This document shows positions 1,754 through 54,081 of a stretch of 64,000 nt of DNA, in pieces. The stretch is from Massalongia carnosa (Eukaryota). Below the pieces are notes generated by a model. It made no database searches. It was not told the DNA's origin and saw only the letters and a program-made list of their open reading frames with translations. Position 1 is the first letter of the stretch; every line of letters begins with the position of its first letter. The DNA lies in contig OZ287074.1 in assembly GCA_965645245.1 (NCBI GenBank), positions 868,001-932,000 of the forward strand. The letters are read 5' to 3'. The position numbers and the translations under genes are program-made.

Positions 1754-3859
1754 CTATCGATCTGATGTTGGGTGATTCCAGGACCCTGTAGGTCGCGCAA
1801 CACACCTGACGAACCGAACTATAGGCGCGAAGGCATTCCGGCTCGCACGCTCCGTCCATTCTCGACCATTGGACTCATCGTCCGCCCACAGATTCTGCGA
1901 TTCTTCTGGGATGGGTAGGTGTTCTGCCGGATCAGGAATCCATTCCAATACGTCGAATGGCTCGGGAATCCAACGCCATATATTAGCTAGCCAGAAAACT
2001 CCTGGTCGTATGTCGATTGATTTTAGAAGATGGATTCCATAGCGTTGTTGCAGGTCCTGCAAACACGCCACATGTTCTTTCAGCTGATTCGCGTCCGTGC
2101 GTGGAAGATAGTGATGTGGCATGCCTAGGGAGTTTGCTAGGCTCTTCAACGAGCGCTTCAACGCCGCTTCACAGGGGTCGGTGAAGATGAAACGACCATT
2201 TATAGCTGGGTCCGGAGTAACCACACACACCTTTTTTCGAGTCACCATTATCACGTCAGGCAGCACACGGTAGGTGTAGAAGACCACTTTTAAAGTCTTT
2301 AGGGTGGGTGTCCACAGGTGTGGTACAAAGCCAGCGAGGGTATCATCCATCGACCATTGATCGAATAGCACATTGACTTCTACAGGCATATAGAGCTTTA
2401 AATACTCCAGAGATTTGAAGGATCGTAGAAGAGTGATATGTGGGGAGACCTGATCGTAGAATACTCGTTAGCTTATCTGTATTGAAGGAATGACGGAGAG
2501 TGTTTTTCTAGGGAATACGAACACATGAAGCATCTTCCCAGTTGAGGTTTATCCCCAGCCTATTGAGCTCAGTACACGTATGACTGATGAACTCAAGATC
2601 ATAAACATCGATTGAGTTGAGAGGCAAAACAAGGGGATGAGCCTCTATTGCAACATAGGCTGCAATTTCAGGCTCCTGGAGCTTGAGAGAACGAAGCGTG
2701 CTCCGATTACTCCAAAGACATTCCCGAATTATTGCCATGCTTGTGTCTACAAGCACCAGCTGCAGCTTTTGAAGGCAGTTGAGTCGGAGGAGAAAATAAT
2801 GAAAACCGCGGTTACGATCACGCAAGTCGTGAAAGGGCCCATATTGAATTTGACTAACTTTTAGCGTTAATGGCTGTGAGTTGCTTTTCTCCAGAATAGT
2901 GAACATTAAATCCGGGTCGATACATAGTTTCAACTTCAAGACACAAAGATATTTAGTGTACATTGTGTTAATAGTTCTGATGTTGTCTGGTCGAAAGTCA
3001 TACCAAACATAATTCATCACTGCCAAGGGGCGGGCGAATATGTTTTTCAGGGGGGTTAGGCTAGCCAATGTCGAAATGGAGTCGTTAGCTACATCGGACA
3101 AGGCAAGGCTAATCGGTTCTTCTAGTGAGACGTCAAGGTCCTTAAAAACCAGTTGAGAGTGACAGTCATTATCCAGTTTCCCTCTGAATTGACAAGCCGC
3201 CAATAGTCTGGACGTCTTAGGATTATTCCAAACTTTGTGCATCTGTCCAAGAAATCCAACTTCACCTCTGTGACAATCATCTTCTGCTGGGAGAATGGCG
3301 CTGAAAAGCAATCTCCAGTCGTGAGCACGAGGATGTGCGTTTAGGGTTGCAACAAGATCATCGGGGATTAAGGTTGGTGCATGCCAGCTATGCATATTAA
3401 TCATTAGCAAACGACTAGGATCCTCTCTAGCTTAACCGTAAGAGAACTCACACAAACGACTCGAGATTTGGTACGAGACCCATCAGGATCCTGACCAGCC
3501 TCAAAGACTCTTTCTGAACTAATATCCAGCGGCCTAGTTCCGGCTTGGGATGGTGCACCGTATATGGCCACATATTCAAAATCAAAGAGTGTAAATGCCG
3601 ACAATTGGCCGGATTGGTTACCACCAGCGACTGTAAGAGGAGCGCTGTTCGGATTACCTTTGTTGGCTTAAATTCAAGCGTGATGTTCCGATAAAGCCAC
3701 GGGGTCGCTGCATCATTCCAAAACCGTGACGTTAGAGCGAGCGCCCTCAAATCTTCCGTCGTACCGTGACTGTAAAGCTATGAAACAATCAGTGAAATCC
3801 AAAACGATCAAGAAAGGCCTGACCTGTTCGCAGACCAAACGTGCACAGTCTGCAGCCAT
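1754..3859 (-). CDS. fungal F-box-like protein, about 4 exons
   Basis: Splicing joins MAADCARLVCEQ|LYSHGTTEDLRALALTSRFWNDAATPWLYRNITL, which resembles the fungal F-box-like pattern, to ORFs 2508-3410 and 1754-2389 (Leu-rich LxxL segments). GT..AG introns with CTRAY branch sites are present. Confidence 0.65.
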
Positions 3860-4158: not shown

Positions 4159-7100
4159 CGATCATAAATACGTGAATCCAGAAAAGCCACCCGAAAATGT
4201 GTCGTCGTTCCCAACCCCAGGCGAGCTAACGGGATATCCCGGAACAAGACAGCGATAGCTTAGGCAATGTTGCTAGCATTAGGGTTTATTATTTCACCTC
4301 GTCTTCTTCAACAATGTCTAAATCCATGATTAAATCGTCAAGACGAGTGTAAGTGGGCCACCGAATAACGTCGTTAAGGGGCTTCGGATAGTTCTTCATC
4401 TATCACCCATCCTTTCAATGTTCAAGAGGCAGGCAAACAGAAGGGGGGAAACATGAGAACGCCCTGCAAAACGACAAAAAGATGATCACACGTTCCCGAC
4501 GTCATTCCTAAGGACTGTCCTTTTAGTGATCCTTATCGAAGACAAAGCATAGATTCGACCACCTGCACATTCTTGCACCCCTACATATTTTCAGTCAGTA
4601 AACTGGCTTCAAAGAGATTAAGATCGGGCTTGATGGCTACCCTATATGTTGTTGCTGTACCAAGTATTCAACTTCCATTCGGCGGAAAGTTGGGAGATGT
4701 TTTCGTGCCGGCGTTAGGGGTAGCCGCCAAGGGACGAACAGAGCATTCAACGGCTAATCATACAACCTGAAACTTTCGGCGCACTCAGAAATCATCGGTT
4801 TGCGGAATATCTGCTTTATCCAAACAAGTTCATCACCGCAGCCAAGGAAATAATATAATTGCATCACCTTAGTTCCACCAACTCGAGAGCCAATCGCTAA
4901 TTAATCAGCCGTAATTAAAAATCAACGTGTTTCTTCTTGAAAATGATGAAGGCGGCATAATGCCCCCCATGATTAAGATGCACAGGGTGAGAGGAACAAG
5001 AAGAAGAAAGGGAATCCATGTTTGAGACAGCCTTACCGCTATTGTTCAAAATTGTTACTCGATTATTTCCCAGCAAGATAGTAATATTAGGGATAGCCTG
5101 AGCATCACTCTAGGCTATATCACAAGAAAAAATAATTGGTAGCAATGCTTAACACCGACGTACACGACTACTTTGTTCCCGTACAAGTATTTTCGGTGAG
5201 ACAACGGTTGAGACCATCTATGCTCTACTGCAATAAGACTTTCATTTTCAGCATCGGCCATAGGCTATTGAAAAATGATGACGACGACGTGGTTAGTGAG
5301 TATACGAGATGTGAATATGAAGAGGCGAGGCGCTAATTGCCGCTCCCGTTTCCGCTCCCGAACCTAACGTTATCACGTGTACTATGTAACTCTTTATCCT
5401 TCACGAAATCCGTGTCGAGCACTGCATAGACTCGCGTTCTATTGACATGATACCTGAAAGATCAAGTCGCTCTGATAATACTCCCACAGAACACATTGGA
5501 TTGCTTAAAAAACTAGCCATCTCGAGTATAAGAAATCCTCGCCCACCTTCCAGGCTTCCATTACACCTCCCTCGTTCTGGCCAAAATACGCGCGAGTCTG
5601 ATAACCCGCCCTTTGGCAGTTCTACGATCTCAATCTTCAGGTAGTGTGCAATGCGATAATGGACCTGAAGAAGGTTTTTTTCAGTTACGGGCTTGGATAG
5701 CTCGTATGATCTATACCCACTGCGCAGTAGCTCTCGAACGAGCAAGAGGGGGCGGGGCAAGGTAAACATGCACTCAGAAGACGGAGAAAATGAGAATTGC
5801 GATGGTTATCTTTTTGACGAGTCTATGGTATCAGTGGAAGGAGCATGTTGATCCCTTTGCGTGGAAACGAAACCATTTAAAAAATAAAAACAACATACTG
5901 AGCACACTCTTTCGCAAGCCCCTCGAAGCTGGGCGGAGTATGGGGTGGTGATCGGTTGTCCTGATAGGTTCGGGAGAGGAAATCAGGCAGGCACTGCATG
6001 CACCATAGAGGGCAGTTTAAGCAAAAATACGAATTTTTCTCATTTTCAAGAGTCTTGATGGAGATGAAAAACGGTCGAAGTGTTTTGGGACTGTTGCGAG
6101 ATGGCCGCGTTCTGCTTTGTCTAGCTATTTCGATTCTCCAGCTTATGTCCTCCTTCCCTCCCTCCTCGCGCTCCAACCCCCCCGGGATAATTCCGACAAA
6201 GAGGTATCCATGGATTTCTCGCGTCTACTAATCGGCCAAAAAGACATGCCATACACATTGAGACTTCTATTTCGATTTTTTCTTTGTCTACTTATCCATT
6301 CCATCACAATATATTGACTCCAAACATCATCTCATTCTCCCCATCATCATCCCACCCTTTAGCCTCTTTTTCACCTCGCTCGTCCTCGATTTATTTCGCA
6401 AAAAACCATATCTGATTCATCATATTCATGCTCCAAAATCAAGAGGATATTATACTCTCTTCTACATTTCTTCTTTCAAGCAATCCGAGTGCATAAGCAA
6501 TCGATCAGTCCTTTAATTCTGTTTCGTCACTTGCAAGGCGATGCAATACACATTAACACCAATGTGCTCTACTAATCCTGTAGAAAAAACGAAAGCGACG
6601 CAATATGAAAACAATGAATTAAAAAACCCCCCGCAAGGTCGAACCTCTACCAGAACCCAGGGACGAAATATTCAAACTGCAAAACAGTTGTGAAGCCAAA
6701 AGCCCCCTTACAACACGATAGGGCCTACGTAGATAAATGCCTGGGTGCCAGTCGCCGAAAGCCCCTCAGAAACGCCCTATTTGGGTACGTCTGTCCCTTC
6801 TCGATCGGCCTCTATATACTTTCTTCCATCTTTATCGTTTCTTCTCACCTTCCAGGAAAAGCAGAAGAAACCCCTTTCTATCTTTTCTTCTCCTTCTTCC
6901 TCTATCTTTCCTTTTCCATATTCCCGTTCTCCACCGGTTGGATGAATGAATGCGGGTTGTCATACATTCTTCCGTCCCTTTCCCCCTTCATTTAACAACC
7001 GGCTAGCTGGTGGCCATGGTACCACTTTTTTCCCTTTCTCTTTTAGTTGCAGTATCTAGCTGCCTTCTTCCCTGCATCCTACTTCTCGGCGGCTACTGCT

Positions 7101-7770
7101 GATCGATTACTTGATTGGGAAAGTTACTTGATGCAATGATTTTCCGAATGGAAGGGGTAGGTAAGCTAAACCCCACGACCTCACCTCATCGGTCTACGGG
7201 TCTAACCTCTTCCGTTCCCCTCCTACCATTTCTCCATCTCGTCTTCTTCTTTTGCTCTCCAATCTCACTTTCCCCCCTCTATCCACTCGTCTCCTCCTCC
7301 TTATCTTCCTTCTCCTTCATTTCTCTCATCAATCTTTCTCCCTCCCATTGTTCTTATCTGTTTTCTTCCTTTTTATCCCACTTATGGACTTTAGGTATTT
7401 AAAAAGATAGACAATGAACTAAAAATAATAGAACAAGAAAGATGGGAAAGGAAAGGGAAAAAGACGATGGAAAGATATCAACCCAAAAAAAGTCCTCCTC
7501 CCCCCCGTCCCCACCCGGGACACTCACAAACACCCTTCCTGCAAAAAAAATCCCACAGGGTTTCCCCCACTCACTCTCCTCTCCACCCACACAAAAGTTT
7601 TATAGAAATCGAGACACCCAAAAACACCCCTCCCAATTCCCCCATCCCACGCGGGCTAAACACCTACGTACACGGACAAACCCGACCCGCGAGTTCAGTA
7701 GAAAAGAAAGAAGAGAATCACGAACGAGCGCTAGTAGCGGAAACGACAAAACGATATGAATCTCTTCTTT

Positions 7771-7790
7771 CAATCAATCAATCAATCAAT
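7771..7790. repeat. (CAAT)5 microsatellite within a low-complexity intergenic tract
   Basis: Read directly from the sequence. Confidence 0.85.
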
Positions 7791-8242
7791 GATTTAATTA
7801 ATCAATCAACCCATCAATACAGGAACGAAGACGAGAAGAGGAGGCGGAGGGCAGCAATGTCTTTCTTCCATCTACTCTTTTTTCTATATGTCTGTTTGTT
7901 CAATCATCCCTTTTTTATCCAAAAAAAAAAAAAGGCTCGTCCTTCGATTCATCCCAATTTCCGCTTCCCCTTACCGTCCCCTATTCTCCCCAACCCCCTT
8001 CTTCACCATCCCGCGCCCGTTCCATCCCTCCCAAGATCTCGCCACCTACCATTCACCTAGCCCAACCTAGCTGCTCATCTACTCACCCACCCAAAAAAGA
8101 AAGTGGTCTAGCACTTTACAAGGAGATACAGTATCTCGTTCTTCTTTTTCTTTGGCCCTCTCTCTCTCTCTTTCTTACTTCTTCTTCTAACCATTGTGGG
8201 TTTCTTTCTTCATTCCGGATCACGGGCATAAACGAAAGAAGA

Positions 8243-8276: not shown

Positions 8277-11200
8277 ATCATCAACAAAGAAGTCAACGTC
8301 TTGGTAGATGGATGGATGGATGGGTATAGAAAATCCCGAATGGAGGGAAGAACTTCTATCCGTCCAAGCTAACCACCTAACTATTCTACGACTATATCAC
8401 ATCACATGACACAGCAGGGCTCCCAATTGAAAACTCATCACCCACCCCTTCGCAACCCCCTCTCCCCCCTATAAAAAAATACCATTTCCTCAATACAATC
8501 CATACCGAAAATACCATCGGTATCTTATTTAGCCCTAAAGTAGTTATATGAAACCTGCCGATTGATCCCAAATCTGCTCGATGCAAAAATATCCCCTGAA
8601 ACCAACGATCGACCCGAATGAAGGAAAACGACCCCTGGAAGTAACTAGTCCCTTGTACCTAGTACACACGTACAAAACCGACAGGAAAAAAAGAAAATAG
8701 GTGGAAGACCGAATAAAAACTCTCGCTTAACGAATATCTACGTAGCACCTACCTATCTATATCCCTACCTACACTAGTTGCGGCTGAACCAACAAACATT
8801 TCGACATCAATGCGGAACAATAGACTTTTTCGCTGCATAATGCGGCGTGCAACGTCAGAAGCCAAAACGGTCTTGCATTAGTTGGCTTTTTGTTAGTATC
8901 CGCGTAAATAGAACGTAGGTACTGTACGAAGTACTTCGGTACACCTACTTCTGTACCGCGTATGCATCGAAAGTTCCATATCACGTACCCCTCCAAACCG
9001 ACCTTTTTCCTAAAGCGGGATCGTGGGGAGGCTTACACACAGAGCCGAGCAGAGCCCTCTTTTTAGTACCGAGTACCTTTTCCGCCCCCAAATAAGAACT
9101 CTATGACGCTCTTCACTTAAAGGGAAAAAACAAACGAAAAAAACAGAAATGTTTCGTAAAACTGTGACGATGGGTGGTTCCAGAGTCCTGGACTTGTTAA
9201 CGACCTTTGGGTTGTTATGTTTGGAATACGGGAGTCTTGAATTGAAATAGCAGATGACGTCATCCGGATTATCCAGCTTTCCCCCACCCAACCTCCCTCT
9301 CGCGGACGCAGACGCATCCGGTTCTTCGCGTACCTGCATGCTCAGCGCATCATGCTGACTCCAGGTCTTCCCTTTCCTGCACTAGGGGGATAACAAGGCT
9401 ATGGTGCGAACAAACCTTGAAAAGGCAAAGTAGGGATTGCATGGCTATTCTTTCGGGCGAACCGAATCCTCTTCTGCAGGAACAGCTGCTTTCAAGGTAT
9501 AGGTCCGGTTCTACGGAGGACGTGCATACCTTCCTTACTTACACATTCCAGGCTCCGATCACTCTTGTTCGCCGACTAATGGGGGAAGGCTCCAGGGCTG
9601 AAAATGCTCATGAATTCCCTAAATCCAATGCATGGGTTTTGATACAACCAATGGCCCTACGGAGCCCTTATGAGTGGTGGACCCCGTTGACCAGTGAGGG
9701 TCGGAGATGGTTTCCCAGGCAGGCATTTACAGCCCGAATCAACCAACCCTCGCGAAATCGGATCACTTATCCATTGCCTCGTCATCTCACTTTTGACCTC
9801 TCCATTATCTTCAGTTTCTAATTCTTTCCTAATTAATATGAAAAAAGGCGAACAAGCGCAAATGGTCATGTCCTAGTTTGGTTCCATGTTGGAATTGCAG
9901 ATTTTGGGGGCGAAGAACGCGGAGAAGCATCGAAACTACGCATGCCATTGCTTGCGCCGGCCCGCCAAGGCATGCTAAGCCGCACAATAAACTATGATTG
10001 GTTTCTTGAAAGAAGTCAACAGTCGTTAGCACAAGTTCATGACGAAAAGCTTAGCTCAATAGTGCAGTTCTTATCGAACGTTGCATTTGACTATTTGGTA
10101 CCTATGAGGCTAAGGGTCCGCCATCTTTAACAGCCCTGGAAGTGGCAGCAGCTGGTCGAATTTCCAGAAAAGGTGAAACACAGGTTTGAGAATACGATTG
10201 AGGGCGCAGAAATCGATGGAAGGAGCCAATCTGCCGGCATCAATCTAGAAGCTGCAGGGCCCCTTTCGAACTATACTTTCCTCATGCTAGCTCTACTAGT
10301 CATGGACGAAAGGGGCGTATCGAACCAGAATCCTCAAGAACTTTCGATCAGTATGAGTGGGATATGAGCTATTGTAGGCTCGGTAAGGCGAGGATAAGGT
10401 TATACAGGTGGAAACCCTCTCGCGGATTTTGGACAATCTGACCCTCCCAGAGTCGTACCAAGCACCCCGCATTTGACGAAAAGATGCTCGGGCTATAGAT
10501 ATAGAGTTATTTGTTAGCTGAGACCTAGTTTTATGTATAGGCCCTAATGCCCTTCCTGATACCTTCAGTCGGTCCTCCTACGATGGTATGGGAGGCACAA
10601 CGGCTTAATGGAACCCATCAAGTGCGTGAGCCTATTCCTACCGCATTCCCCAGAACCTAGTTTCATACGATGCAGATTGCCGCGACGATGCGCTCATCAG
10701 TAATCGGCTCGAACATAGAAAGATGCCTGTTCATGGGAAACCCATTGGTATGAAAAGCATGGTTCTCTGCAAAGTCGTGAGAGTATTACCCGAAAGAGGT
10801 TGATCCAAGGGGGAGTACAGCGTGCGTTGTTTCAATTCGGTCTTTAGCATGATGCAGTCTCCATTTCACGTGGCAACTGCCCGGAAATGAATGCCAACCC
10901 TTAGGATAGTACGCCAGGACCAGTGCACGGTGGATTCTAATGGCAAGCATGTTAAAAGTCTGATCTCAAGGCGATATGTTGCCTTGGCGGTGATTTGCTT
11001 TCCAAAAGATGCCGAATACGATCAATGCAAACCATGATTAAAATTAAGTGACAGTTCTTCTTCGGTGAGCGATGGTTGACGAGTCCGTGCGAGGGGGAAA
11101 AAACATTAGAATTCAAAGGCACCATTAGGCACCAAGCCCCCCATGCAGCGAAGATCATGCAAGATCAAAAAGAATCATTAAGGGTCATTTGCGTGCATAA

Positions 11201-11832
11201 TCACCGCTAATAGAGACAAGAAACTCACGGTGGCTGTCCACCAAGTGCTGCAGTAAGGAACTTTACTCGGATATCTCCGATTACCTTGCTTGTTGCGAGC
11301 TCGCGACTTGCGAGTGTCTCACCAGCAGGTTCCCCATGATTCTGGGAATAATTGACGGTAACTGTACCGGTATGTCCGTCCATCGGCAGCGAAAGTGCAA
11401 AGCTGGTGTCATCGTTACCTAAGAAAGGGTAACGATCATCATCAAGGACCTATTTTGACGACGATCCAAGCCACCAACGACATGAGAGAAGTCGACAAGA
11501 CTATTAATACTCCCTGGGACGACAATGTGTCTCACGTCCGATCGTGGGGCTGGTAGCGACCTCGGAGTTCGTGGTGGGAATGTCGTGGAGCCGTGATCAG
11601 TAGCTAACGTAGTTTAGGTAGTTAGGCCTGTTGACCAGTGAACCTCATTGAACCGACAATGATCCAGAATATTCTCCGCAAAGTTGGGTTGATGCAGGGT
11701 AAGCGTGCGACAGTCGGACCGAAACCATGATATGGGATATGGGATACGTGATTGTTGTATGTTCATTGGCCTCTTCAAACCATGGCTTGGTTTCTTCTAA
11801 GAGTTGTACAAGGTATGGGTTTGCAAAGTTGG

Positions 11833-11878
11833 CACGCGGGTGACAAAATAAATTGCAACGTGTAAGCGAATTTACCCC
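11833..11878 (+). repeat. left terminal inverted repeat
   Basis: 46/46 reverse-complement match to 13114-13159. Confidence 0.95.
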
Positions 11879-11931
11879 TGAATGCCCCATCAAAACACCC
11901 TCCTTTTTTTCAACTTTTTATCTCATCATCA

Positions 11932-13035
11932 ATGTCTCGACCCAAAAAGCCTCATTATGATACTCCCACAAAGGCCAAAGTTCAAGGAGCTTATCAATTT
12001 CTCATCTCACATGCAATTCCATTCGATCCACGGGCCATTTTTCAGGAATTTGGCGTGGCCGAGCGCGCGGGCTATAACATCATCAAAAGCGGAGCTTCTT
12101 CTCGCACACGTCACAATTCTTCTCTCGTTGAGACTCGGGGTCGAAAGCGAAAGATTAGTGATGATCAGCTGAAGGAGGCAGATCACATTCTGCAGGATCA
12201 AGATCTACAATTGGAAGGAAAACGCTACACATGGGATGCTTTAGCACAGGAGATTGGGGCCGACGTGATGGGACGTACAATGAAGAGAACTCTTACAGCT
12301 GCCTTGAATGATCACAAATGTCTAGCCTGTGTCAAAGGGTGGCTGGCAATGGCATCAGAAGAAAGAAGAGAAGAATTTGCTACAGTTATGTTAAATAAAT
12401 ATCCTCGGTCCGAAGACTGGCATCGCGTACGATTCAGCGATGAGATTCATTTTGGCTACGGGCCTGAAGGACAGTTACGAATCATTCGTAAGCCCGGAAC
12501 AAGATATCGTTGGGATTGTATTCAGCATCGTGATGCACCACCTGAGAAAGATCGTAAAAGAAAGCACTGCTGGGCAGCAGTTGGTTACAATTTCAAGTCG
12601 GATATCTACTTCTACGATGTGCCCAGCAATAGCAATGGAAAAATGACTCATCAGGTGTATATTGACGCTATTCTTGATCCCGTTGTCAAGCCCTGGTTGG
12701 AGCGTGGAGATGACTTCGTACTTGAAGAAGATGGAGACTCTGGTCATGGCACGGGCAAGACACGAAACGCGGTCAAAAAGTGGAAGTTAGATCACGATTT
12801 AGAGCACTATTTCAATTGTGCTTCATCTCCTGATCTAGCCTCTATTGAAAATTGCTGGCAGCCCGCAAAGCAGCATGTTCGTAAATTTCCTCATTGGGAC
12901 GATGCAAGTTTGGAGCAGCTGATTAGGGAGGGATGGGCTCGAGTCAGTCAGGAATTTATCAATGAAAGGGTGTTATCCATGCCCAAAAGATTGAAAGAGG
13001 TAAAAGATGCAAAGGGGGCGATGACTGGTTATTGA
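11932..13035 (+). CDS. DDE transposase, IS630/Tc1-like (DD38E)
   Basis: 367-aa intronless ORF with an N-terminal HTH-like region, RGRKRK, and the catalytic motifs FSDE, LEEDGDSGH and SPDLASIENCW. There are 38 residues between the second D and the E. Confidence 0.95.
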   Translation: MSRPKKPHYDTPTKAKVQGAYQFLISHAIPFDPRAIFQEFGVAERAGYNIIKSGASSRTRHNSSLVETRGRKRKISDDQLKEADHILQDQDLQLEGKRYTWDALAQEIGADVMGRTMKRTLTAALNDHKCLACVKGWLAMASEERREEFATVMLNKYPRSEDWHRVRFSDEIHFGYGPEGQLRIIRKPGTRYRWDCIQHRDAPPEKDRKRKHCWAAVGYNFKSDIYFYDVPSNSNGKMTHQVYIDAILDPVVKPWLERGDDFVLEEDGDSGHGTGKTRNAVKKWKLDHDLEHYFNCASSPDLASIENCWQPAKQHVRKFPHWDDASLEQLIREGWARVSQEFINERVLSMPKRLKEVKDAKGAMTGY

Positions 13036-13113
13036 TCTCATGTAATTTAGATGAATTTTATCAGCTATGCAGATGATGGTTGATGATGAGATGAAAATTT
13101 GAATAAAAAAGGG

Positions 13114-13159
13114 GGGGTAAATTCGCTTACACGTTGCAATTTATTTTGTCACCCGCGTG
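13114..13159 (-). repeat. right terminal inverted repeat
   Basis: 46/46 reverse-complement match to 11833-11878. Confidence 0.95.
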
Positions 13160-16100
13160 GTTGGGTACTTTCTCACACAGCACGTTGATACGCTCCTGAT
13201 CCCCGTAACAAATCGATAACTTACGGAGTTCATGACGATGGTGTGATAGAAACCAGGTTAGCTCGACTAGGTTGATCCAATGAGGTTGGTACAGAATGTC
13301 CGTTAGCAGAATCAGTCGCAACCCAATTTCCTGCGAGACTAATGACGCACGTGTACTTCCCGCTCACCACCAACATCCTGTACCGGGGGTCCAACTGGCC
13401 GTTTCCGATTAGCTAGCGAAAGTCAATCTCCCGCTTCCCAAAACACCTCCACAAACCTGCAGATACTTGCCAAGTACGAACACAGAGTAGGTACTCCGTC
13501 CTATGCTGCAGAGCACTCTCTGTCGCTATCACCACCAAAACCTTCTTCCTCGTTTGCCATGTGCGCGATTTCTGTACCAAATAGCAAAATCTGGATTCAG
13601 CGTACTGGAGAGTTCGAAAAGGAATTCGGAGAACTGTCTCATCTGCATCATCCCAAACAGGACCTCGAACTCATGACGAAAACCGACCAATCCCCCCCGG
13701 AAGGAGGACCATACTTGCCTATTCCATCTCTTCCTTGCACAGTGGTTTGCCCTCCACCAACATGAAGCGAAACATTCCAGCATCAAGCGGTTTATCAGTA
13801 ATTGGCTAACGACCTCAATCTGCTGTGCGAATCTGTATCGTCCACAAAGTCACAACTTCTACCCTGCTGCCTGAACACTCTCGATCGCCGTCATGGACTA
13901 CTGCTCCTGAAAGGATGTTCTGCGTCTTATTTCTAGTTTCGTCTTGTGCTCAATTCTTTTCACGAGTACAGAGTAGCAGGAAATCGAACTCCCAGACAGG
14001 CAAGTGCAGCGTTATGCAACCTGCTCGATGGAGCAGTGCACCGCCTTCCTCTGCACCTCCTACCACAAACGAGTCATGGTGAACTCGATATAGAACTGCA
14101 TTCCTTTCACATCGTGTTGCTAGGAGTATCATATTCACTTTTGAAGAGGGGTACATATTTTTTCTGAGCCCCTGCTGCTATCAAGTTTCAAGTACGATCC
14201 TATGAGTCTTGTCGAGCATCAGGACTGCAGAGCTCGGCATTCGTGACGTAACGTTTACATCTCCAAAGATGCCTCACCTCCTTGTGTGAGCTAGGTGTTG
14301 GTTCCCCCTTCCCTCCCTACCGTGATCCTCGCATAGCGAAAGATGAGTAAAGCTGTCATAATCACCGGTGTGCTTGTAATGTAAGCCCTCCCAGAATCTT
14401 TGCTTCAAGCCACGTGTAGATGCCGGGTTTGATGCGGAGTCACACGCCTCCCTAGGGTGAAAACAAGCGAAGGAAAGGCTTTTGATAATCCTTGACCAAC
14501 ATCGTTGATGGGTGTTATGGTTCAGGTTGCATGAGGTCATTGGAGCACGATATACTCCGCAGAGTGATGGCTCATCCTAGCGGTGTTGCAGGAGAGTATG
14601 CTCGCAAACATACCAGAAAGTGCGCCCATCAAGAAGACGATCCAAAATGGGGTAAATGCAATTACTGGTGATGGAGAGATGAAGGCGGAAGTATCCAAGT
14701 TTCGGGGTTCGAATATAGGCCCGGTGGTTTTGCTTGTCAAGTGTGGGAGTCTGTTCATTCATCCTCAGTGGGAATCTTGAAGACACGGGAACAAGGTTTC
14801 CTTGTTGGATCTGAAATTTGAGTGATGGTTGTGTGCGCCCTTGGGGGCTGACAATACGTGATAACTGACATCTCGGGAATTGGGGCTTACGTATTCTGTA
14901 CTCGATAGCTCTTGATCAGTATCTAGGTAGTTGCTCTCATCTCTCATCATGATGGACCATACCCATCAAACCAAGCTTTTCAGGCAGTTCGGTATCTATC
15001 AATAAGGCTTTCACGCGATTGTTAGCGGAAAAGAAAGTGTGAGTGGCCATGTACATAGTGGATAGCTCCATGCAAAATGCTCGGCCTTGATTTCTCCCGT
15101 CCTTTGTTTGCTACCGTTGCGCATACTTACAGAGTACCTTATCCCAGCTAAACCTAGCCCGCTCCCCCAAGCGCCAGCGCTTCCACCTCGCCGCAACAAC
15201 TATCGAGAAACTATGTTCGGCCCTGGCCCCGGCCCTGCCGCTCCAGGACATAGTTGACGCTCCCTACGGGTATAGCCGTGCAAACGGTTTCCCCGCAACA
15301 TGCTGGCTAGCAGCATGAGATGTTCTTTGCGATACACGGGAGTAAGGATGAGCATATCCGTACGTCGCGATAACCCTCCTTACGATTGCTGCTCCATTGC
15401 CCATAGTCGCTTGATTTGCTGCTCGGCATACCTAGGCTGGTAGATCGCATTCCGCATGGAGATTAGCTAGACCATGATACGACCTTTAGTTAGGGCGAGG
15501 CCGGCCGTGCGTGCGTTGTTCAAGGCAGCAGAAACGAGTAAATCGAGGATTCGAATCCTTCTAGTCCTAGGCAACAAGAACGACGCTTTAGCGAAGGGAA
15601 GGCGGCTTGGCGAGGTGTGCAGAAAGCGAGCGATTGCTCCCATGATTCTCTTTTTACATGGTGTGTGCGCCTGAATCTTATCCTTGTTCCCAGCAGCATG
15701 ATGGGTGGAACGTACTGCGTTCCCTTGAGCTCAAACGCCCATCATGACTCGGTGTTAGTGTGTACTACAAAGTACTCGGTACGGGGTGTCGGAGGAAGAG
15801 TGCATTTCAGCCTCAGAACGTAGAGCATGAGCGATGATTGGATGAATGGGAATAAGATTTGCCGGGGGGGTGTGCGCGCTGCAGCGACTGGACGACATCA
15901 CGATCGAGTAAGTCAGAAGTTCCTGCACTTAAGCGCCGACGACTTTTCCCTGGTGTGCCTGGGTAGGAAGCGAAACCACGCAACCAACAACCGAAGAAGA
16001 TTCCAATGCTCGTCATTGGTTCCTGACCGCGAATTCAGGCAAACGCCAGACCAGACGGTGGGTTTTCAGCTCAGGTACACTAGTCGTCATTTGTAAAAGT

Positions 16101-30116: not shown

Positions 30117-33100
30117 TAAAAGGACGAAGCTGGGCTCTTCAAGTTTTTTTTTCAGAATGTAGGAATGACGGAATCTTGATTTGTCGACTTGGTCGGCTTT
30201 TCAATCTGGCTTAAGTAGGCTTCTTTTCCCAGATTGGGATAAATGGATGAACGGTGGCTTGGTGACTTTCTTTCTTTTTGAGATGCTAGGTGGGCGGATT
30301 GTCAATTTCTATCTTCCCCTTATTGCGCGATTGCTCGAAATCAATTGATGGGCTACATGGCAGCTTTGCTTCGTGAGTAAGCGTCTCCATTCTTTCGCTC
30401 CCTGAGAGCTAAAAATTGTTCGAAGACTCTCAAGGGCGCACTTCATTTTTCTATTTTCAAAATTCACCCTTACAGACAGCTCTGTTGTGGACTTTCGTCC
30501 ACGATGTAAGTAGCTTCAGCTAGCTTTGCGTAGTGTCATTCGATTCCGCGGTCTTTCACTAGATATGCTGCGTACCGTTAATGCTTGATCTACTTGGACT
30601 CGTGCTGATATTTGGTAAGACGTTCACTCCGATGCTTTTGTCCACGATCTTCCTCTCGATTCTTCCGATACACAGAGCCTGTTACGCTATATGTATATTG
30701 TTTCAGCAACTAGTAAACCGCCATCTAGCCAACCTCCCAAGTTCATTTTTTAGCCAAAACCATTCGTCCTGATTGATTTACCCTCGTATTCCACCTCACT
30801 ATTTCGCTTTCATCCATCAACGACTACATCCATCCATTAGCCCTACCTACTATCTACCTCCACCTCTACCCCCTTCTCTCATCGATTGATAATCTCCAGC
30901 TGTAAAAGTAAAAAAAAGAAGCATTTACCTCCTATACCCCTTCTCGCCCCGCCTATTAGCCATCGCATGAAAACCCATAGTGCACATATCTTGTCTACAT
31001 ATCTTGTCTGTTGAGATGCGAGTTTTTAAAGAGTCAAGATATTTGTCGGGGCTGTTTCTTCGCTATTTTCCAATGCTTAGATATCACCGGGCTCAAAATT
31101 GGTATCTTTAGACATGATTTTTTTTCGAGTCAACCGCTTTTCTTTTCCACAATGAATAGTGCACCTGTGGAAAAGACCTGGGATTTTAATTCCCTTTCTC
31201 ACTTACATACATCGGTTTACCTACTAAGTAACTTAGGTACCTTTCATCCCCACTCCGTTTGTGACCTCAAACATTCAGCTCCAACATCCAACTTTCCACA
31301 ATCAAAAACGAATAACTCGTGTGAATAGTACATGATATGATACACACAACCCGACGGTTTCTGAACATTATAAGTGTTTCCTAATCGTGGGGATTACACT
31401 TGCTTGCTCCTGCTCCTGTTGGCTTTTTTTATTTTTCGTTTCTTTTCTTTGGAATTCCGACAAGTCAAATTAACCGCTAACCGCAATATGCCAAAACGTC
31501 AATTCAACCTCGCATTGGATGTTGGGAATCTGGCTGCTAAAGTTTGGATCCAAATTCCATAAGTAGCCCACTCACTATTTCAATCTAAATGCTCCTTGAC
31601 GGTGGCAGCAATAGCAACAGCAAATAATTCATTCCCCACTCACGCTTTCTCTCTCTATCCTCTGTTTCCCTCTCTTCCAACCCGGCTCGCAAACCTCCTT
31701 CCAAAAAAACATAAACGCTTGCGAATCATTTTTAATCCATCTACCCATTCCCGCCTTCTTTCCCACAGCCCTGCTAGAGTTTTCATCCGCGCCCCGTGAT
31801 GCTTTTTATTTTTCCATCTTTCCCTATTGTGGGGCATATAGCATCCGTCCTTCGACATTCTGTGGCTTGGGATTGAAACGAGATGAGATTCGTCGGAATG
31901 GACGTAGTAGGGAACTAGCTAATTGGCTGGGGTTCTCATTAAAACGGAGAACGGAGAACGGAATGAAATTGAATGGCTGGGTTGGGTTGGGTTGGGGTTT
32001 ATGTCTTGAGGGAAAGAAGTCGGGGCCAGCTGGGCTTTCTTTTCTTTTGTGTGTCGCAACGAACTTCGAAGTTTCTGATATCGGTCGAGGACTTGGTTGT
32101 TGAGCTGAGTGAGTGAGCAAGTGAGCAAGTGAAACCAAACATTAGTGACTCCATCTCTCACTCGGTCCAGAGATTCTGCTTGCATCTTTTTGTACGTCTC
32201 CAATCTCTTCAAGCTCTTCAAGCTCTCTCCTCGCCTCCACCTCTTATCACGCTCTTCACTACTCAACTTAACTTAACCCATCCCTCAATCTCACCCCCAA
32301 TCCCGAACTCTCACTCTCCCCTCTCTCTATCTCTCTCTCTATCGATCCACCAATCGTCCCCTATCCTGAATCCCTCCCCTCTTCCCGATATGTTTCTCGT
32401 CGTAGTTTTCTGCTTCATTCCGAGTAGGTGCTTTGTTGTTAGAGAAACCTTTGCTAAAACCCAGCACTCTATTCATCCACCCACATCCCATCCCATCGCT
32501 TTCCTTTCCTTCATTTTACCTCGCTCTCTCTCTCTATAAAAACCCCAATTCCCTCTAGGTTCAATCCCCCCCAAGAAATTTACCTCAATCAGAAAACCCA
32601 CACCCCGGCCAAAATTTTACCAAATACAGGCCGCAGAGGAGGTCCTAGAGCACATCAGTTGCTCGCTCATGCAGTATACCTACTCTACATACGCATCCTT
32701 CCCTCTCAATACTTTTCTCAGGAAGAGAAGAGAACACAATGGAGGAGTATCTCGTCCAAAACTAAACGTCCCACCCTCATTCCTAGCCCTATGCTTAGCT
32801 ATTCATTTGATCAATCTACCCTGACTGGTTCACTCGCCCATTCTTATCAACATCTGCCGTACCCTACCGTACCCCATCCTAACCTCATCATGATTTCCTT
32901 TCGTTCTTCCTTATCAAACTCCCCTGCCTTCCCTCTTCCTCTGCCTTTCTATCTCCTCTACTTCGTAGTCAGCAGTCATAGTAGAAACAGAAGTCGATGA
33001 AGCGTGCTTGGGCCCGTTTGAGAGGATGGAGGAGGGGGGGGGTGTTGCTTGAACGAATAGGCGCGTAGGGGAAGTCTTCTGCTGTAGAAACCTAGTAGCC

Positions 33101-33481
33101 CAGTCTTAGCACAGACGTATAGTAAGCCAGCCACACTATCCCCAATCGGGCAGTTTAATCCAATTAGGCAAGTAAAGCTGGCAATACAACATGAAAGCCG
33201 TTGTTAAACACAAGAGGAGCCGCAGCTCGGCGTCAATTCCGTCCTTGTATGATACGAAGCAGATCCTAACGAAAACGCCAACGCCGCCCGGTAACAAGGA
33301 ATCCCCTTTTCCTAATCTTCCCGCGCCCTTGGGTATCTTCGCTAAAAAAAACATTGAAGAAATTAAAGCAACGCATCCCCCCAAAACAAAAGAAATAACA
33401 TAGGAAAGTTAAAAAGAAAACGAAAAATTTTAGTAAAGCGCAGCAAACCCTCCCCTTCCACCTCTTCCCCCTCCCTCCCAC

Positions 33482-36400
33482 TCACCGTACCGCCCTAGGC
33501 TCAAACTCCCCCACGAGCCCCCCGTTCAACAACTCCGCCACCATCCTCCCCCGTTGCACCTCCATGTCCTCTCCCCCGTAGGACATGGGGTCAACCCCTA
33601 ATACCACCATCCTCGCGGTGGTGCATGTAAACACCCCGCAGTCGCTCCCATTGAGCTGCCGCGGGCCAGCTCCGAAGCTGCCCGTAGGCACCGACCACTC
33701 TCCCTCCTTCCACGACTTCCCGAGTTCCTCCCTCAGCCATAGCTTCGCATTCCTAATGTAGGAATCGGCTCGCCCACCCATCGAGTCGAAATACTCGATG
33801 GTGCGGGCGAGGGGGCTGACCACGAGCAAGGTCCAATGGGCACCTTGGTGGACTGGGATGAAGACACGTTCGACCTTCAAGAGGTCCTCCTTGCCAATCT
33901 TGGCCTTGGCAGCCCAGCGCTTAATGCTCTGGGCTCCTTTGTCGCGGAGGTTCTTGTAAAAGAACGTGTTGAAGGCGTGGAACTTGGGCGTTTCGCCGGC
34001 CTCGTGGTTCGACACACGCAGACCGTACTCCACCACTTGGTGCAAGCAGGCTGCAATGATCTCGTCATTCAGCCATCCGTGCGCAGGATCTCGTCCCGGG
34101 ACCACTTTTAAGGTACCCAAGTCTTTGCGGGTCAGGGCGGCGCCGCTCGACAAGGTTACCAGCACTTGGCTCATGTCCCGGGTATCTAGTGCCTGCTGCA
34201 CTCTCCCATTCCAAGCCGCATCCAGAGGTTGGATGATATTTTCGGTCGGGATGCGACGGACGCCTTGCTTTTGGCGTTCGTCCGCGGCTGCCTTTGCTTT
34301 GCGAGCCTCCTCGTCCGCGTCCAAGTCTATTTGCCGGGCTCTTTCTTCAGCTACGATGGCTACCTCAAGCTCGCGCAGCTTTTTCTTAAGCTGCCTCTTT
34401 TTTTCGTCTTCTTTGTCCTGTGCTTCTTTGACGATTCGCTGCGAGTGGCGACGCTCCGCTACGTTGAAGCCGATAGCGCCTTGAGACTCCCGTGGCGTTC
34501 CTAGGGTCTTTCTACGCACCGCAGCGCTCCTTTGACGTGTTTGACTCTTCTTGCGACCGGTTTCCCTTCCTTTGTCTGATAAGTCCAAACTAGCAAAGTC
34601 CGAATACTCGTCATCTGATGCGAACAAGTTCTGTCCAGATGCCAATGCATGGGATCCTTCTATCGAGGCTGCTTCTTCCTCCACGGCTGGCCTATCTGCC
34701 TCCACCACAAGGCTACATGCCGTCACTTCTGCTGAGGTATCATTGAGAACTGCTGCGCAGCCTGCCTCGCTGACCATGGGAAAATCTTTAAGTGCTAATG
34801 CAGAGGTAGAATCTCTCAATGCAAATGAATTTCCTTCAAACGACTTGGTAGGGTTCTGAGCTGCCGATGCGTCGAACTCGACTTCGTTGCGAAGGCTGTC
34901 TTGATGAGGTGACGATAAATTACGCTCAACATGCTGATCGAAATATCCTTGCGCGCCGGTGTGGGAGTGGAGTCTTCCTTGGGTATCTCTAAACTCTATA
35001 ACAGTGCTGGGTGCTTGCAATGCCGATGCATTTTCCTCCGGAGGATTAGCGAACAGAGCAACATTATCAGTTGTAGTGGAAGGATACAGTGATCGATCGT
35101 CGATAGGTGAACTCGGGAAAGGCGTAAAAACATTTGGCGCACTACTGCTAGGATCTACAACAAATAATTTTACTAGAGAACGCTGATGGGTCGAGCTAGG
35201 AGCTGATGCCACGGCTGGTGATGACAAGGCATCGTTTACACCAGATATCAATGATTCTGTGCTAGAAGTGTGAGCTGCTGCTTTTCTAGGATAGGTCAAG
35301 TTGCTATGTAATAAAGAATCGCAATCATTGATGCTCAAAGACGATTTTTTATAAGGTGGACTAGAGCTGACAGGAAAATCCATGGACTCTTCGTATATGA
35401 ACTTCTTAGTCTTAGTGATCGGTCTGCCAGTTCTAGGGCTCACAAAGAATGCGACACTCTTCTTCGGAGACCGCTTAGGTGTGTCCAGACCTGATCGGGT
35501 TACTGATTGTGAGAAGCTCTGGTGTTTGCGAATGCCAGATTTTGCACCTGTAGATCGAAGAACGCTTGGCAATTTATCGGATTTATGTGAGCGTGAGACT
35601 TGGATATTTTTGCTCGCAACTCTTCGCTTAAGACCAGCTTTCGATGCTTTCGCCTTTATTTTGAGCTCTTCATCAATAAGCGCTTGGAGTTGGGCGCATG
35701 GCTTAGAATCTAAAGTTTTCTGAAATCCTTTAACTTGGTCATCCGACGTATCAGACATATTTTCGTCCATCTCATCTGATATAGTAGATTCGTCGATCGA
35801 TGCTGCTTCTGGATTCGAATGATGTCTTAGCATACCGGTAGAATTAACTGCATTTTTCGGAGAGGGCTGTGCAGATAAGAGCGAGTTATTAATCATATTG
35901 ATTTGTGAGTTTGAAGAGCCTTGAGTCATGTTCCAGGGTTGTGGTTTCTCGGTCGTAAAATCTCTGGTAGTGTTAGGAGTAGTGTCGGAAGGATTAATTA
36001 ATATGTTCAGGGACGATTGTGTTAATGAGGAAGCGTTAATCGTATTCATGGATGAACTGGAGGGGTCCCGGGTCATGTTCCAGCCCTTAGGTTTTTCGAT
36101 TGCAATATCTCTGGTCATTTTAGAGAGAATAGATGCCGGCTCATCTGTCTTAAGCTTGTCTACTTCGGATCCCGTAGATGCACTGAATCCTGAGCTAGAT
36201 GGGGCGTTAATGAATGGACTTGGAGAGTGTACTGCGCGCGGGGTTGCTGTGTTGAAGAATGAAAAGGTTGATGATGCAGCGGTGAAAAATGGCGCGCGAG
36301 AAAATGCGGTATTGGAAACCCCAGTGTTAGGTGCTGATGCGTCAATTGCTGCACTGTTGGAAGCTCCAGGACTAGCAGATGATGCGTTAATGAGCGTTGG

Positions 36401-49774: not shown

Positions 49775-50542
49775 ATGGTCCGAATCAAATACCGCTATCT
49801 CCTCGTCAACATCCTCTACCCCGATCCCTCCCCTTTCATCCTCACTCCTATCACCACCATATCCCCCCCCTCCCCCCATCTTCCCCCCGCCCTCCTCCAA
49901 TTCCACGCCCCAACCCCCAACCACCTAACCCCCCAGCTCCTGGCGCGTACTATAAAAGACCAGATCGCACTCCTGTACGGCGATTACGGCGTCGGCGTCA
50001 CCGCTGCGAGTCTGAATGGTATTTTCATTTCTTTTCTGTCGTTTTCATCCTATCTCTTCATCCCTCTCTGTGTTGTATTACTATACGGCAGCATATCGTG
50101 TGAGTTTTTCTCTTTTCGAGAAGAAGTCTAATCTATTTTAAAAAACCCCCTCACAGTAAAATACCTCTCGCCCGCCACCTCAACCGCCATCGTGCGCTGC
50201 TCGCGTACGCACTACCGCCTCGTGTGGGCGGCCCTATCGTTCCTGACGCATCTCCCAGGCTCCCCGGCGGCGCACAGCGGGCCGCTGCTGCCGTGCGTTT
50301 TCCAGGTCCTGAGGGTGTCGGGGACGATCCGGAAGAGCGAGGAGGAGGCCATCAGGCAGGCTAGAGCCGCGATTATGCGTGCGAAGAGGGAGGGGGGGCC
50401 GGAGGGGCGGTTGGGAGGGCTGCGGGCGGTTTTGGGACGGGCGGATGAGCGGCTTGGAGCGGGCGCGAAAGGGGGAGGGGATGAGGATGTGGTGGCTGGT
50501 ATTGAGAATGAGGATGAGGAGGAGAGTGAGGGCGAGGGATGA
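49775..50542 (+). CDS. POP5: RNase P/MRP subunit Pop5
   Basis: MVRIKYRYLLVNILYP, LYGDYG, |VKYLSPATSTAIVRCSR.HYRLVWAALSF and VLRVSGTIRKSEE. One intron. Confidence 0.93.
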
Positions 50543-50653
50543 TGGATGACCGGTGTTCAATGAGTTTTCGGGAGGATGATGATATAGGTGTTGACGGATG
50601 ATTCAGAATTGCCTAACGTCTCTTGCCAGAAGCCACACCCACGGTGCCAGGCC

Positions 50654-52061
50654 TTAAGGTCGCCTCACAACCGTAACGCCGCTATCAGCGATCCGCCTCG
50701 CCATCCCATCCATCCCGTACTCATCCTCATCGTCGTCGGCATAATCCGTCAAGTCAGGCGTCCCCCTCGCCCTCGCCGCCTCCTCCAACTCCCTCCGCTC
50801 TAGCTCATCGAATTCGTCCTTCCGATCGATCCACCGCTCCTGCACGTCCCCTACGCTCAGCTGCCCCAATCCTTCCCTCATTGCCACCTGCCAAACCGTA
50901 TCATTGGCGCCCTCAGCGCCGCCGAACGCATACCCGCCCGCCCGATCGATCGCCTGCAGCAACGTCATCATACTCCGCTTATCCTCAACTGCCAGTGTCT
51001 CGAAGCCCACCAGGCCGAAATCCTCTACTAGCTCTACGATCGCGTGGTTTAGCCCGGCGAATTTGCCGTCTTGCATCGCTGGGTTCTCGGACGCGAGATG
51101 GGGGAGCAGGTAGGAGAGGTCTTGCACTTCGGTGTAGTAGTCAAGGTTGAACGGGAGAGGAGCGTAGCTGGCCAGCTTGTCGATTTTGGTCAGCACGTTC
51201 AGGTGCGGCAGGTCCATCTGCAGCATGGCGCGCAACGAGAGCAGGACGGTCGATATGTACAGTGAGGGCAGCGTGAGAGTGTAGGAGTCTGTTAAATGGA
51301 GGACCACCAGCTACATCGAATTCGGGGGGAATTGTTAACATAATCCTTGCCTCCTATTTCGAGGCGGAGAGGTTTGGGGGGAGGGTAGAACTAACTCTAT
51401 ACCCCATCTTCTCGATCCTCGCAAATATCCTCCGCAACGACCCATGATGCGTGAACAGCTCCACCTGGCCTGGACAATCGAATAGCACATAATCATCTAC
51501 TCCCACAAAAAATCAGCCCCCCGTCATTTGCCTTTCTCCAAATCAACAAACTCCCCTCTCTTCCAGCATCCCTAACCCTCCTCACCCCGGAAACCAACCC
51601 ACCACCAAAAACCAAAAAAGAAGAATCTTCTCACCTAGCCAAACCGTCTAAAATAGGTACATACCTCCCAACCCCCTCAACCCCCTTTCCAACCACTCCC
51701 CTCCCCCTTCCCCCTCCAGCTCCTCCAGCGCCCACAATACCGCCCCATTCGGCCCCAAGCCCTGCTCCTCCATCACCTCCTCCACGCGCACCACCTCGCG
51801 CACGTCGAGCGCGCAATCGTACCCCACCGCGCCTACCCCATGGCCGCCGCGTGGCCGTGCGCTAGCATGCTGGCCTACGGTGACGGCAGCGCCATCAGCA
51901 GACGAAGAGAGGGAAAGGGGGAAGGTCCCCAAGTCGTTCGCCGGATCGAGGTTGACCACGGAGCATTTCCGCCCCAGCGCGCTGAGAAACTGCTGCATGC
52001 CGGCGCAATAGGTGGATTTCCCGGAGCCGGGAGGGCCGATTATTAGTTGGGCGAAGGGCAT
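50654..52061 (-). CDS. GPN2: GPN-loop GTPase 2
   Basis: MPFAQLIIGPPGSGKSTYC, VNLDPAND, LGPNG, DYVLFDCPGQVELFTHH and LPHLNVLTKID..LPFNLDYYTEVQDL. Two clear introns. Confidence 0.94.
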
Positions 52062-52637
52062 GGTCGGGTTGTTTCTTGCTTTGGGTTGTGTCTGGTTTGG
52101 TTTAGTACATATGGGTGGCGATGGTGGGGTGGGGGTGGGGGTGGGGGTGGGGGTAAGGGTAGGGGTGTTGATTTTGGGAATCGTATGCGCGTGGGAGAAT
52201 AGAAAGAAGGAAGAAAGAGAGGGAGGGAGAGAAGGTGAGGGAAGTGAGGAGTCGGGATGGATTTGTATGCTGTAGCAGAGTGGAATGGGGTGATTTGTGA
52301 ATAGGTAGATGGATAAACATGAAAAGGTGGGACGTGCCCGCGGCACATTAATATGTAACGAAAAATACTCACCACGGACTGTAGATATTAACTCGTCCGC
52401 AGCAGCTAACATTTCCCACATGAAACCTCTACTCTACTCCTTCTTCCTTCTTCGTCCACATCTCCATCTACATACGTACATAAACACATTGTAGCTTCAT
52501 CTCCACCTCCACTTAAACCCTTCCTCATCCCCCGCCTCCGCCTCTTAAACTCCCCACTCGTCAACCAATCCTTACTCAACTCTTCTTCTACCCAACACCC
52601 CCCACCCCACCAAAACACCAAATCCAAACAAAAAAGG

Positions 52638-54081
52638 ATGAGCGCTCGTAAGTCCTGCTTCCCACTAAGCCTCCCTAAAAAACCCCAACTAACTTTTACC
52701 CCCCTTCCCCCTTCTTTTCTCAGAAACCCAAACCGAGCTTTCCTCCCCCCCCCAAGACGCCATTTCTAGCCTCCAATTCGCCCCCACAGGACCTCGTCTC
52801 CTAGTCGCATCCTGGGATCGGAACGTTTACCTGTACGACACCAGCACTGGCGCCAGTGCTGCCGCCGAGGGTGGGGGCAGGGGGGATGGAGAAGGAGAAG
52901 GAGGAGGAGCGGGGGGGAGATTGGTGAGGGCGTTTTTGCATAGGGCACCGGTGTTAGATGTGTGTTTTGGGGAGGAGGCGGAGGAGGAGGCGTTTACAGC
53001 CGGGTTGGATTGGGACGTTAGACGGTGAGTGAATCTCTTTCGTTTTGGGTTCCTTTTTTTTCTTTTTTTCTGGAACAAGGGGGGTGGAGGGTGGCTTAGA
53101 AGGTTGTAGGGTTTCAATTGGTGTCGGGGGGGGGGGGGGGGGGGGGGGGGATGAGGAGGATTGAGGAGGCTTGTGTGGATGTAGAGGGAGGAGAGAGGGT
53201 TTCGGAGATAGTCTACTACATCTATGGTAGGGGAGGAACAGGGCTAAAGAGTTGATGTGTTTGTTCTTTGTCATTGCAGAATCGATCTTGTTTCCGGTGC
53301 ACAGGCCGTGCTCTCCAGCCACGCCGCCGGCGTCAAATCCGTCGCCTATAGCCCAACGCATAAGATCCTAATCTCCGCCTCGTGGGACTCGACGCTTCAC
53401 ATCCACCGTCTACACGATCCGTCCGCAGCCCGCTACGGCTCCGTCACCCTCCCCGCGAAACCCTTCTCGATCTCGCTCACCCCGACGAAGCTCGTCGTGG
53501 CCATGGCCTCGCGCGCCCTTCACATCTATGATCTCGCTGCCCTCGCCGCGGAATCCTCCCAGCCGTCTTCGAGCCCAATATCGCTTCAGATTGAGCCCTG
53601 GCAGCGCCGGGAGAGCGCGCTCAAGTTCATGGCTCGGGCTGTGTCCTGCATGCCTAACGACGCCGGCTACGCGAGCAGCAGCATCGAGGGCCGTGTTGCG
53701 GTGGAATGGTTCGATCCCTCCGCGTCGTCACAGGCCCGCAAATACGCGTTTAAATGCCACAGGCAGGCGTCACCCGAGGGCGTCGACGTCGTGTATCCCG
53801 TCAACGCACTGGCGTTCCATCCAGTGCATGGTACGTTTGCGTCGGGCGGTGGAGACGGGTTGGTGTCGCTGTGGGATGGGGTAGGTAAGCGCCGAATCCG
53901 GCAGTACCAGAGATATGCCGCGAGTGTGGCGGCACTGAGCTTTTCGGGGGATGGGAAGTATTTAGCCGTGGGTATTAGCCCCGGCTTTGAGGATGGAAGA
54001 GAAGGGACAGGGGATGGGGTTATAAAGGTCTTCGTGAGGGAGCTGGGAGCGAACGAGGCTAAGGGCAAAGGAGGTAAATGA
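52638..54081 (+). CDS. BUB3: spindle-checkpoint WD40 protein Bub3
   Basis: PPQDAISSLQF..LLVASWD, RRESALKFMAR, SSIEGRVAVEWFD..KYAFKCHR, YPVNALAFHP.HGTFASGGGDG and KRRIRQY. Two introns. Confidence 0.92.
53126..53150 (+). repeat. G25 homopolymer in BUB3 intron 2
   Basis: Read directly from the sequence. Confidence 0.9.

Follow-up and report, generated by a model that had tools for sequence, protein, structure and literature searches.

A duplicated TA dinucleotide at the insertion site is stated for Tc1/mariner elements in general and for their fungal families in passages of PMC7325037 and PMC2836289, and for pogo-type elements in a passage of PMC4188875. The fungal element impala, as described in parts of PMC5579170, reinserts at TA, which becomes duplicated, and its catalytic spacing is given as DD37E in a passage of PMC7325037. 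A changed duplication within the fungal members of the IS630-Tc1-mariner group is on record for the Fot elements, TAA or TAAA (PMC7386202, in part), and this was the only departure from TA inside the group that was found in the literature passages searched. Here we describe a transposon of 1,327 bp, located at 11833-13159 in a 64,000-nt stretch of Massalongia carnosa DNA (contig OZ287074.1, positions 868,001 to 932,000; the whole stretch is referred to as the window, and coordinates are counted from its first letter), in which a Tc1-type transposase is combined with a 5-bp target duplication that lacks TA. The best explanation, to which we assign a probability of roughly 0.87, is that this is an autonomous Tc1-type transposon with a 5-bp, non-TA duplication that is shared across its clade.

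The element is the only one of its kind in the 64-kb window. Its terminal inverted repeats (TIRs), at 11833-11878 on the forward strand and 13114-13159 on the reverse strand, are 46 nt each and were 100% complementary in an inverted-repeat search; the left arm starts CACGCGGGTGACAAAA, and a similar terminus is present in relatives. Directly outside both arms stands the pentamer GTTGG (11828-11832 and 13160-13164). Outward extension of the inverted repeat is blocked by a G opposite a C, and TA abuts neither end, the left flank closing with GG and the right flank opening with GT. An earlier inspection of the letters alone, referred to here as the sequence-only reading, had described perfect 46-bp TIRs ending at GTTGG repeats without adjacent TA, and this description holds at the coordinates given. 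A 28-nt TIR pattern, searched with at most 3 mismatches, matched the window twice, at the two ends of the element, against an expectation of 0 from 100 shuffles, and the rest of the window contained neither another copy nor a fragment of the element or of its protein. An intact open reading frame (ORF) on the forward strand (11932-13035) encodes 367 amino acids with no need for an intron and contains the motifs FSDE, EEDGDSGH and SPDLASIE. Just inside the TIRs there is a second, imperfect inverted pair of 29 nt and 90% agreement (11904-11932, forward, and 13080-13108, reverse), possibly a second binding site for the transposase. With TIRs around one transposase gene and a length of 1,327 bp, the size and layout are those of the Tc1 family (about 1.3-2.4 kb), and we read the element as an intact, autonomous cut-and-paste DNA transposon of an ascomycete that has probably been mobile recently.

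The most direct evidence on the nature of the GTTGG pair comes from public runs, six of which contain part of the stretch 10900-14100 and four of which were compared with the window. Run X1, a lichen metagenome, contains a contig of 42,547 nt that covers both flanks at about 99% without the element, with 2 other letters and 7 gapped positions on 10900-11803 and 12 other letters and 2 gapped positions on 13160-14100. At the joint of this contig 1,356 window bases are skipped and 37 letters stand between the two flanks. When inspected by eye, the 37 letters were recognised as a diverged version of 11801-11827, with 13 extra letters spread over three small indels, leading straight into GTTGGGTAC, so that the contig has one GTTGG and no element. 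Because the empty site in the X1 relative has a single GTTGG, the pair in the window is a real 5-bp target-site duplication. A single GTTGG at an empty site was one of the things on which the sequence-only reading had made its claim depend.

Contigs from two other runs, X4 and X5, cross the left boundary of the element and reach 11857 in the TIR, and therefore represent filled sites; another contig of X4 extends from 13135 into the right flank. The window may derive from runs X2-X4, and these do not count as independent of it. In run X4 the element was covered some 150 times as deeply as its flanks, a depth that is not a copy number. Run X6, from another organism, yielded a 5,428-nt contig with a copy of 11829-13106 that differs by 9 other letters and 2 gaps. 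This copy lies in a different flank, with ...CTTAC before TTGG and hence CTTGG as its left flank, and its right end is lost before the TIR, which makes the duplication unreadable.

The host sequence at the insertion site was also inspected for gene continuity. A minus-strand ORF across the site stays open when 1,332 bases are removed (by eye), which made a host gene a candidate. Compared with the window over 11741-11832, the X1 contig lacks 7 bases at 11741 and, in the 30 bp nearest to the insertion, differs by indels of 3, 9 and 1 bases (by eye). Since the frame is disrupted in the relative by indels of 7, 9 and other lengths, the ORF is probably no gene, and the flank is probably fast-evolving and non-coding despite the open frame.

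To quantify the duplication across the family, we used a scan of Joint Genome Institute (JGI) metagenome contigs with the family alignment A1, which gave 80 loci at 36-64% identity. For each locus, a script picked the best inverted repeat around the transposase match. The TIR score was at least 20 in 39 loci, and after addition of the window and merging of 6 duplicate loci there were 34 distinct insertions, from which L015, L041 and L070 were dropped because the family terminus was not present on both arms. The remaining 31 scored insertions comprise 30 metagenome relatives, 40-55% identical in protein to the window's transposase, and the window itself. Element boundaries were set by the motif rule C[ACT][ACG][GC], with 0-3 nt trimmed inward where a palindrome had lengthened the inverted repeat.

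An exact 5-bp direct repeat was present at 18 of the 31 insertions, and TA on both sides at none. The other repeats were one of 6 bp (L021), one of 7 bp (L031) and two of 3 bp only, with no case of 4 bp. One further locus, L006, was mis-trimmed by the rule and has CGTGG on both sides when the boundary is set by hand at CAC, which would make 19, and in L077 four of the five repeat bases match. As a control, the left flank of one locus was compared with the right flank of another, and 4 of 930 pairs agreed; when the right pentamer was offset by 3, 5, 7 or 9 nt within the same locus, agreement was 0/31 for each offset. All 18 duplicated pentamers differ from one another, and they must therefore be target and not element sequence, which also answers the question of whether GTTGG could be a part of the element. 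An ORF of at least 330 amino acids is kept in 6 of the 19 duplication-bearing elements, and since pairwise identity among these six goes down to 39.5%, the trait spans a deep clade. We conclude that the 5-bp, non-TA duplication is a clade-wide trait. The sequence-only reading had proposed a Tc1-related fungal lineage with altered target capture, a 5-bp stagger and no need of TA, and had asked whether other copies or homologues are flanked by TA; the repeats in 18/31 and the absence of TA flanks in 31 support the proposal.

These counts also bear on the simplest alternative, that the GTTGG pair arose by chance or through one aberrant non-TA integration by a TA-specific Tc1-like transposase. For a single case, identity of two 5-mers is expected once in 1024, close to the earlier estimate of roughly 1 in 1000 and to be set beside the 4/930 mismatched flank pairs observed, and rare non-TA integration has been reported for Sleeping Beauty (PMC5801840 and PMC7987939). 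Neither accounts for exact 5-bp repeats in 18 of 31 diverged insertions with TA at none, nor for the single GTTGG at the X1 empty site, and we consider this alternative highly improbable and ruled out by the flank table of the 31 insertions.

Two observations on individual loci are added here. The insertion represented by L008 and L009 (2189-3507) has the left flank GTTGG, the same pentamer as the window, and the right flank CCATT; it may be a recombinant of two copies or a chimeric assembly. Locus L070 (about 2450-3028) is an internally deleted derivative of 576 bp with family-type ends, the left tip of which lacks CAC, and is a candidate non-autonomous member resembling a miniature inverted-repeat transposable element (MITE).

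The 18 verified targets share a base composition. C was found in 11 of them at position 1 and in 11 at position 2, G in 11 at position 4, and G or C in 17 at position 5. The base two before the repeat was A or T in 17/18. Targets thus lean towards G+C-rich sequences, roughly CCNGG with A/T-rich shoulders, in this small sample (n=18). The base three after the repeat was A in 14/18, compared with T in 3/18 at the mirror position before the repeat, which hints that insertion orientation is non-random relative to the target. Single ends on short contigs (e.g. L014, L024, L041 and L070) likewise show ..GG and then GTA, and the left-adjacent flank is often ..TGG, as in the window, X6, L008 and L052. 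This TGG is target preference and not element sequence, and the same preference explains the frequent GG before the left end and the occasional apparent extension of the TIRs by GG/CC.

We also examined the identity of the transposase. Against Pfam, the 367-amino-acid protein matched DDE_3 (E 2.6e-9, 37.5 bits against a cut-off of 28.6), and no other credible family was found at E up to 1, where one weak unrelated match was the only one besides DDE_3. A word-indexed protein search returned 295 homologues at E <= 0.001, the top one being 98% identical and representing a cluster of 43 member sequences; named homologues were from Dothideomycetes, Botrytis, Pseudogymnoascus and Orbilia. In an exhaustive search of cluster representatives (50% clustering) there were 3,226 matches at E <= 0.001, 931 at <= 1e-10 and 228 at <= 1e-30. 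The catalytic triad consists of D170 in FSDE (codon 12439-12441), D267 in EEDGDSGH (12730-12732) and E306 in SPDLASIEN (12847-12849), all on the forward strand and aligned to WSDE, QHDNDPKH and SPDLNPIEN of Sleeping Beauty, respectively, which gives DD38E spacing. Across the 36 family members aligned in A1, D267 and E306 never vary and D170 hardly does. DDE_3 was matched by 35 of these 36 members and HTH_Tnp_Tc3_2 by 20; in the window's own protein the latter gave no Pfam match at E up to 1, and the AlphaFold model (mean predicted local distance difference test score, pLDDT, 78.4) has helical bundles at residues 11-52 and 77-125.

Searched against solved structures, the family profile matched the catalytic domain of Sleeping Beauty (5cr4; E 7e-19), in an alignment that brings all three catalytic motifs together, and Mos1 at E 0.25 only. 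The Foldseek search with the model placed 5cr4_A first (E 2.5e-10, TM 0.77 normalised to the target), followed by Mos1 transpososomes and SETMAR, with retroviral integrases far behind. The protein thus has a DDE/D triad within an RNase H-like domain that shares homology with Tc1-type transposases, and both sequence and modelled fold identify the enzyme as a Tc1-type transposase of the Tc1 branch of the IS630-Tc1-mariner group. The earlier call of a Tc1-like transposase is borne out by the Pfam, structure-profile and fold matches, and the DD38E spacing that it gave agrees with the positions of the triad.

Transib elements duplicate 5 bp and prefer G+C-rich targets. The sequence-only reading had pointed to the likeness in CAC ends and 5-bp duplications to the Transib/RAG group, which it took to be unrelated; the 5-bp, G+C-rich duplication has been confirmed, whereas the CAC start is not family-wide, the termini being CAC, CAA or CTC. 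That the element is itself Transib/RAG-like would agree with the duplication and the CAC start of the window copy. The transposase, however, matches DDE_3 and Sleeping Beauty/Mos1, with no RAG1-type family in Pfam at E up to 1 and none by fold, and other members begin with CAA or CTC. With an unrelated transposase, the resemblance is one of shared outcome and not of shared ancestry, and a Transib/RAG identity, which we consider barely conceivable, was ruled out by the Pfam, structure-profile and fold matches.

A further alternative places the clade outside Tc1 proper, as a separate IS630-Tc1-mariner lineage of a rank like that of Zator or pogo, independently derived from bacterial IS630-like elements and never TA-using. 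In its favour, the group-defining TA duplication is absent from the clade, the spacing is DD38E and not DD34E, Pfam DDE_3 includes bacterial IS630 too, and bacterial relatives exist. These relatives were seen in a protein-pattern scan of genome contigs, which found 10 bacterial IS630-like loci at 24-35% identity; exact TIR scans of genome contigs and of viral contigs gave 0 matches each. Only one of the 10 loci, L088 (43-1647, in a Saprospiraceae metagenome-assembled genome), gave a clean TIR pair, which makes for a thin outgroup control. Its IS630-like protein shows 27% identity, its ends start CACTGCGGG, and the same procedure found TA on both sides, which makes it a positive control for the reading of the flanks. 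As a side observation, the ends of L088 start CACTGCGGGCCAAAAG and resemble the tip of the fungal family, yet are TA-flanked. Against a separate lineage, the closest solved structure is by far a Tc1-family one (E 7e-19 for Sleeping Beauty versus 0.25 for Mos1), HTH_Tnp_Tc3_2 is present in 20 of 36 members, and the tip of the TIR has a core similar to the end motif published for impala/mimp (by eye). We therefore regard such an origin as unlikely, and a place within the Tc1 branch as the preferred reading.

Several points weigh against a clade-wide 5-bp duplication by a Tc1-type enzyme. Under the strict rule, 13 of the 31 insertions have no exact 5-bp repeat, and seven of them (L001, L008, L030, L034, L036, L044 and L046) have no repeat at all; we tentatively attribute the latter to the age of the copies, to recombination among them or to chimeras in the metagenome assemblies. 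The element boundaries rest on a motif rule that may trim inward by as much as 3 nt, and there is one empty site only, which has three small indels in its immediate surroundings (30 bp). The chemistry is deduced from homologous enzymes, and the Tc1 placement comes from sequence and fold matches. Finally, the repeats of 6 bp in L021 (GCCGCC) and 7 bp in L031 (CCCAGGT) indicate that the stagger may not be fixed.

The last of these points leads to the alternative of a variable stagger, in which the target would determine how many bases, from 5 to 7, are duplicated. The two longer repeats, at the boundaries set by the rule, are what it would predict, but 5 bp was seen 18 times, and 6 and 7 bp once each. 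The boundary of L021 is ambiguous, and where targets are G+C-rich and partly palindromic, a repeat should occasionally be longer by a matching base or two. A variable stagger is accordingly rather improbable, and we retain a duplication of 5 bp. L021 is located at 1601-2971 and L031 at 668-2024 of their contigs, and the other members with ends of the L031 type (L034 and L044) are without any repeat.

If the Tc1-type assignment is correct, the likely course of transposition can be sketched by homology and from Tc1/mariner biochemistry. A putative N-terminal helix-turn-helix region of the transposase would bind the long inverted ends, and a transposase dimer on both ends would excise the element. 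The 3' ends of the element (...GTG-3') would then be joined to the two target strands, and gap repair would create the duplication. A duplication of 5 bp implies that the two strand-transfer attacks would be staggered by 5 bp instead of 2, and what the enzyme reads in the target would now be a G+C-rich pentamer in place of a flipped TA, with TA not being required. Compared with Sleeping Beauty, the window protein has extra residues right after the second catalytic D, which are only a candidate for a role in stagger or target choice. A more far-reaching interpretation is that a widespread, undescribed ascomycete clade related to Tc1 and impala, with 228 representatives (50% clustering, E <= 1e-30), gave up TA and the 2-bp stagger in favour of a 5-bp stagger at CCNGG-like sites, and we give this roughly even credence.

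Comparison with described systems shows which features are shared and which are not. With Tc1 and Sleeping Beauty, the window family shares a single ORF of about 340-370 amino acids, an element size of 1.3 kb with TIRs, a DDE triad in an RNase H-like fold, the motifs FSDE/WSDE, D.D..H and SPDL.PIEN, and ends that start with CA. It differs from them in the duplication of a 5-bp G+C-rich target instead of TA, in DD38E versus DD34E spacing and in the additional residues behind the second catalytic D. Insertion at TA with a 2-bp TA duplication, by which the Tc1 family is delimited, was seen in 0/31 insertions, and the lineage thus combines a Tc1-type enzyme and anatomy with insertion away from TA. 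The closest named fungal relative is probably impala, judged by description and not by sequence comparison: it is a Tc1-like element of similar size with a 340-amino-acid transposase, found with the MITE mimp in Fusarium oxysporum (parts of PMC5579170), and it has DD37E spacing and a similar end core. Unlike in impala and mimp, there is no TA, and the window end CACGCGGGTGACAAAATAA does not fit the mimp motif. The duplications of Fot and Fot-like pogo elements still contain TA and their enzymes are of the pogo-type DDD class, whereas the window element is TA-less and of the Tc1-type DDE class. The DD38E spacing is shared with Intruder, a narrow animal family that is sister to DD34E/Tc1 according to PMC7731502.

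Elsewhere in the literature, the passages of PMC9977792 and PMC11544213 mention DD38E merely as a known spacing, and those of PMC5751038 count fungal Tc1/Mariner elements by Pfam domains without considering duplications. The 5-bp duplications in passages of PMC10085805 belong to long terminal repeat elements, and the passages of PMC4455052 contain nothing on 5-bp duplications in Tc1-type elements. Full-text searches turned up no Tc1-type element for which a duplication of 5 bp has been reported; they did not extend to Repbase, Dfam, subscription journals or supplements, where the trait may already be catalogued.

The TA duplication serves as a defining character of the IS630-Tc1-mariner group in classification schemes and annotation pipelines, as passages of PMC7325037, PMC2836289 and PMC4188875 illustrate, and tools that call element boundaries by TA would therefore overlook or truncate members of a large fungal clade that breaks the rule. 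Two closely related types, one with TA and 2 bp and the other with G+C-rich targets and 5 bp, would offer a route to the structural basis of stagger and target choice. If the reading is correct, the clade is a naturally occurring test case for how stagger and target are set in a Tc1-type transpososome, and a source of small non-TA tools of the Tc1 type. The intact 1.3-kb element, with its different target spectrum, is a candidate tool for insertional mutagenesis in fungi.

Base composition in the window is uneven away from the element. The G+C content rises to 0.56-0.58 in 50001-54000 compared with about 0.46 elsewhere, and strongly negative GC skew was observed in the 2-kb windows 6001-8000 (-0.33) and 32001-34000 (-0.26).

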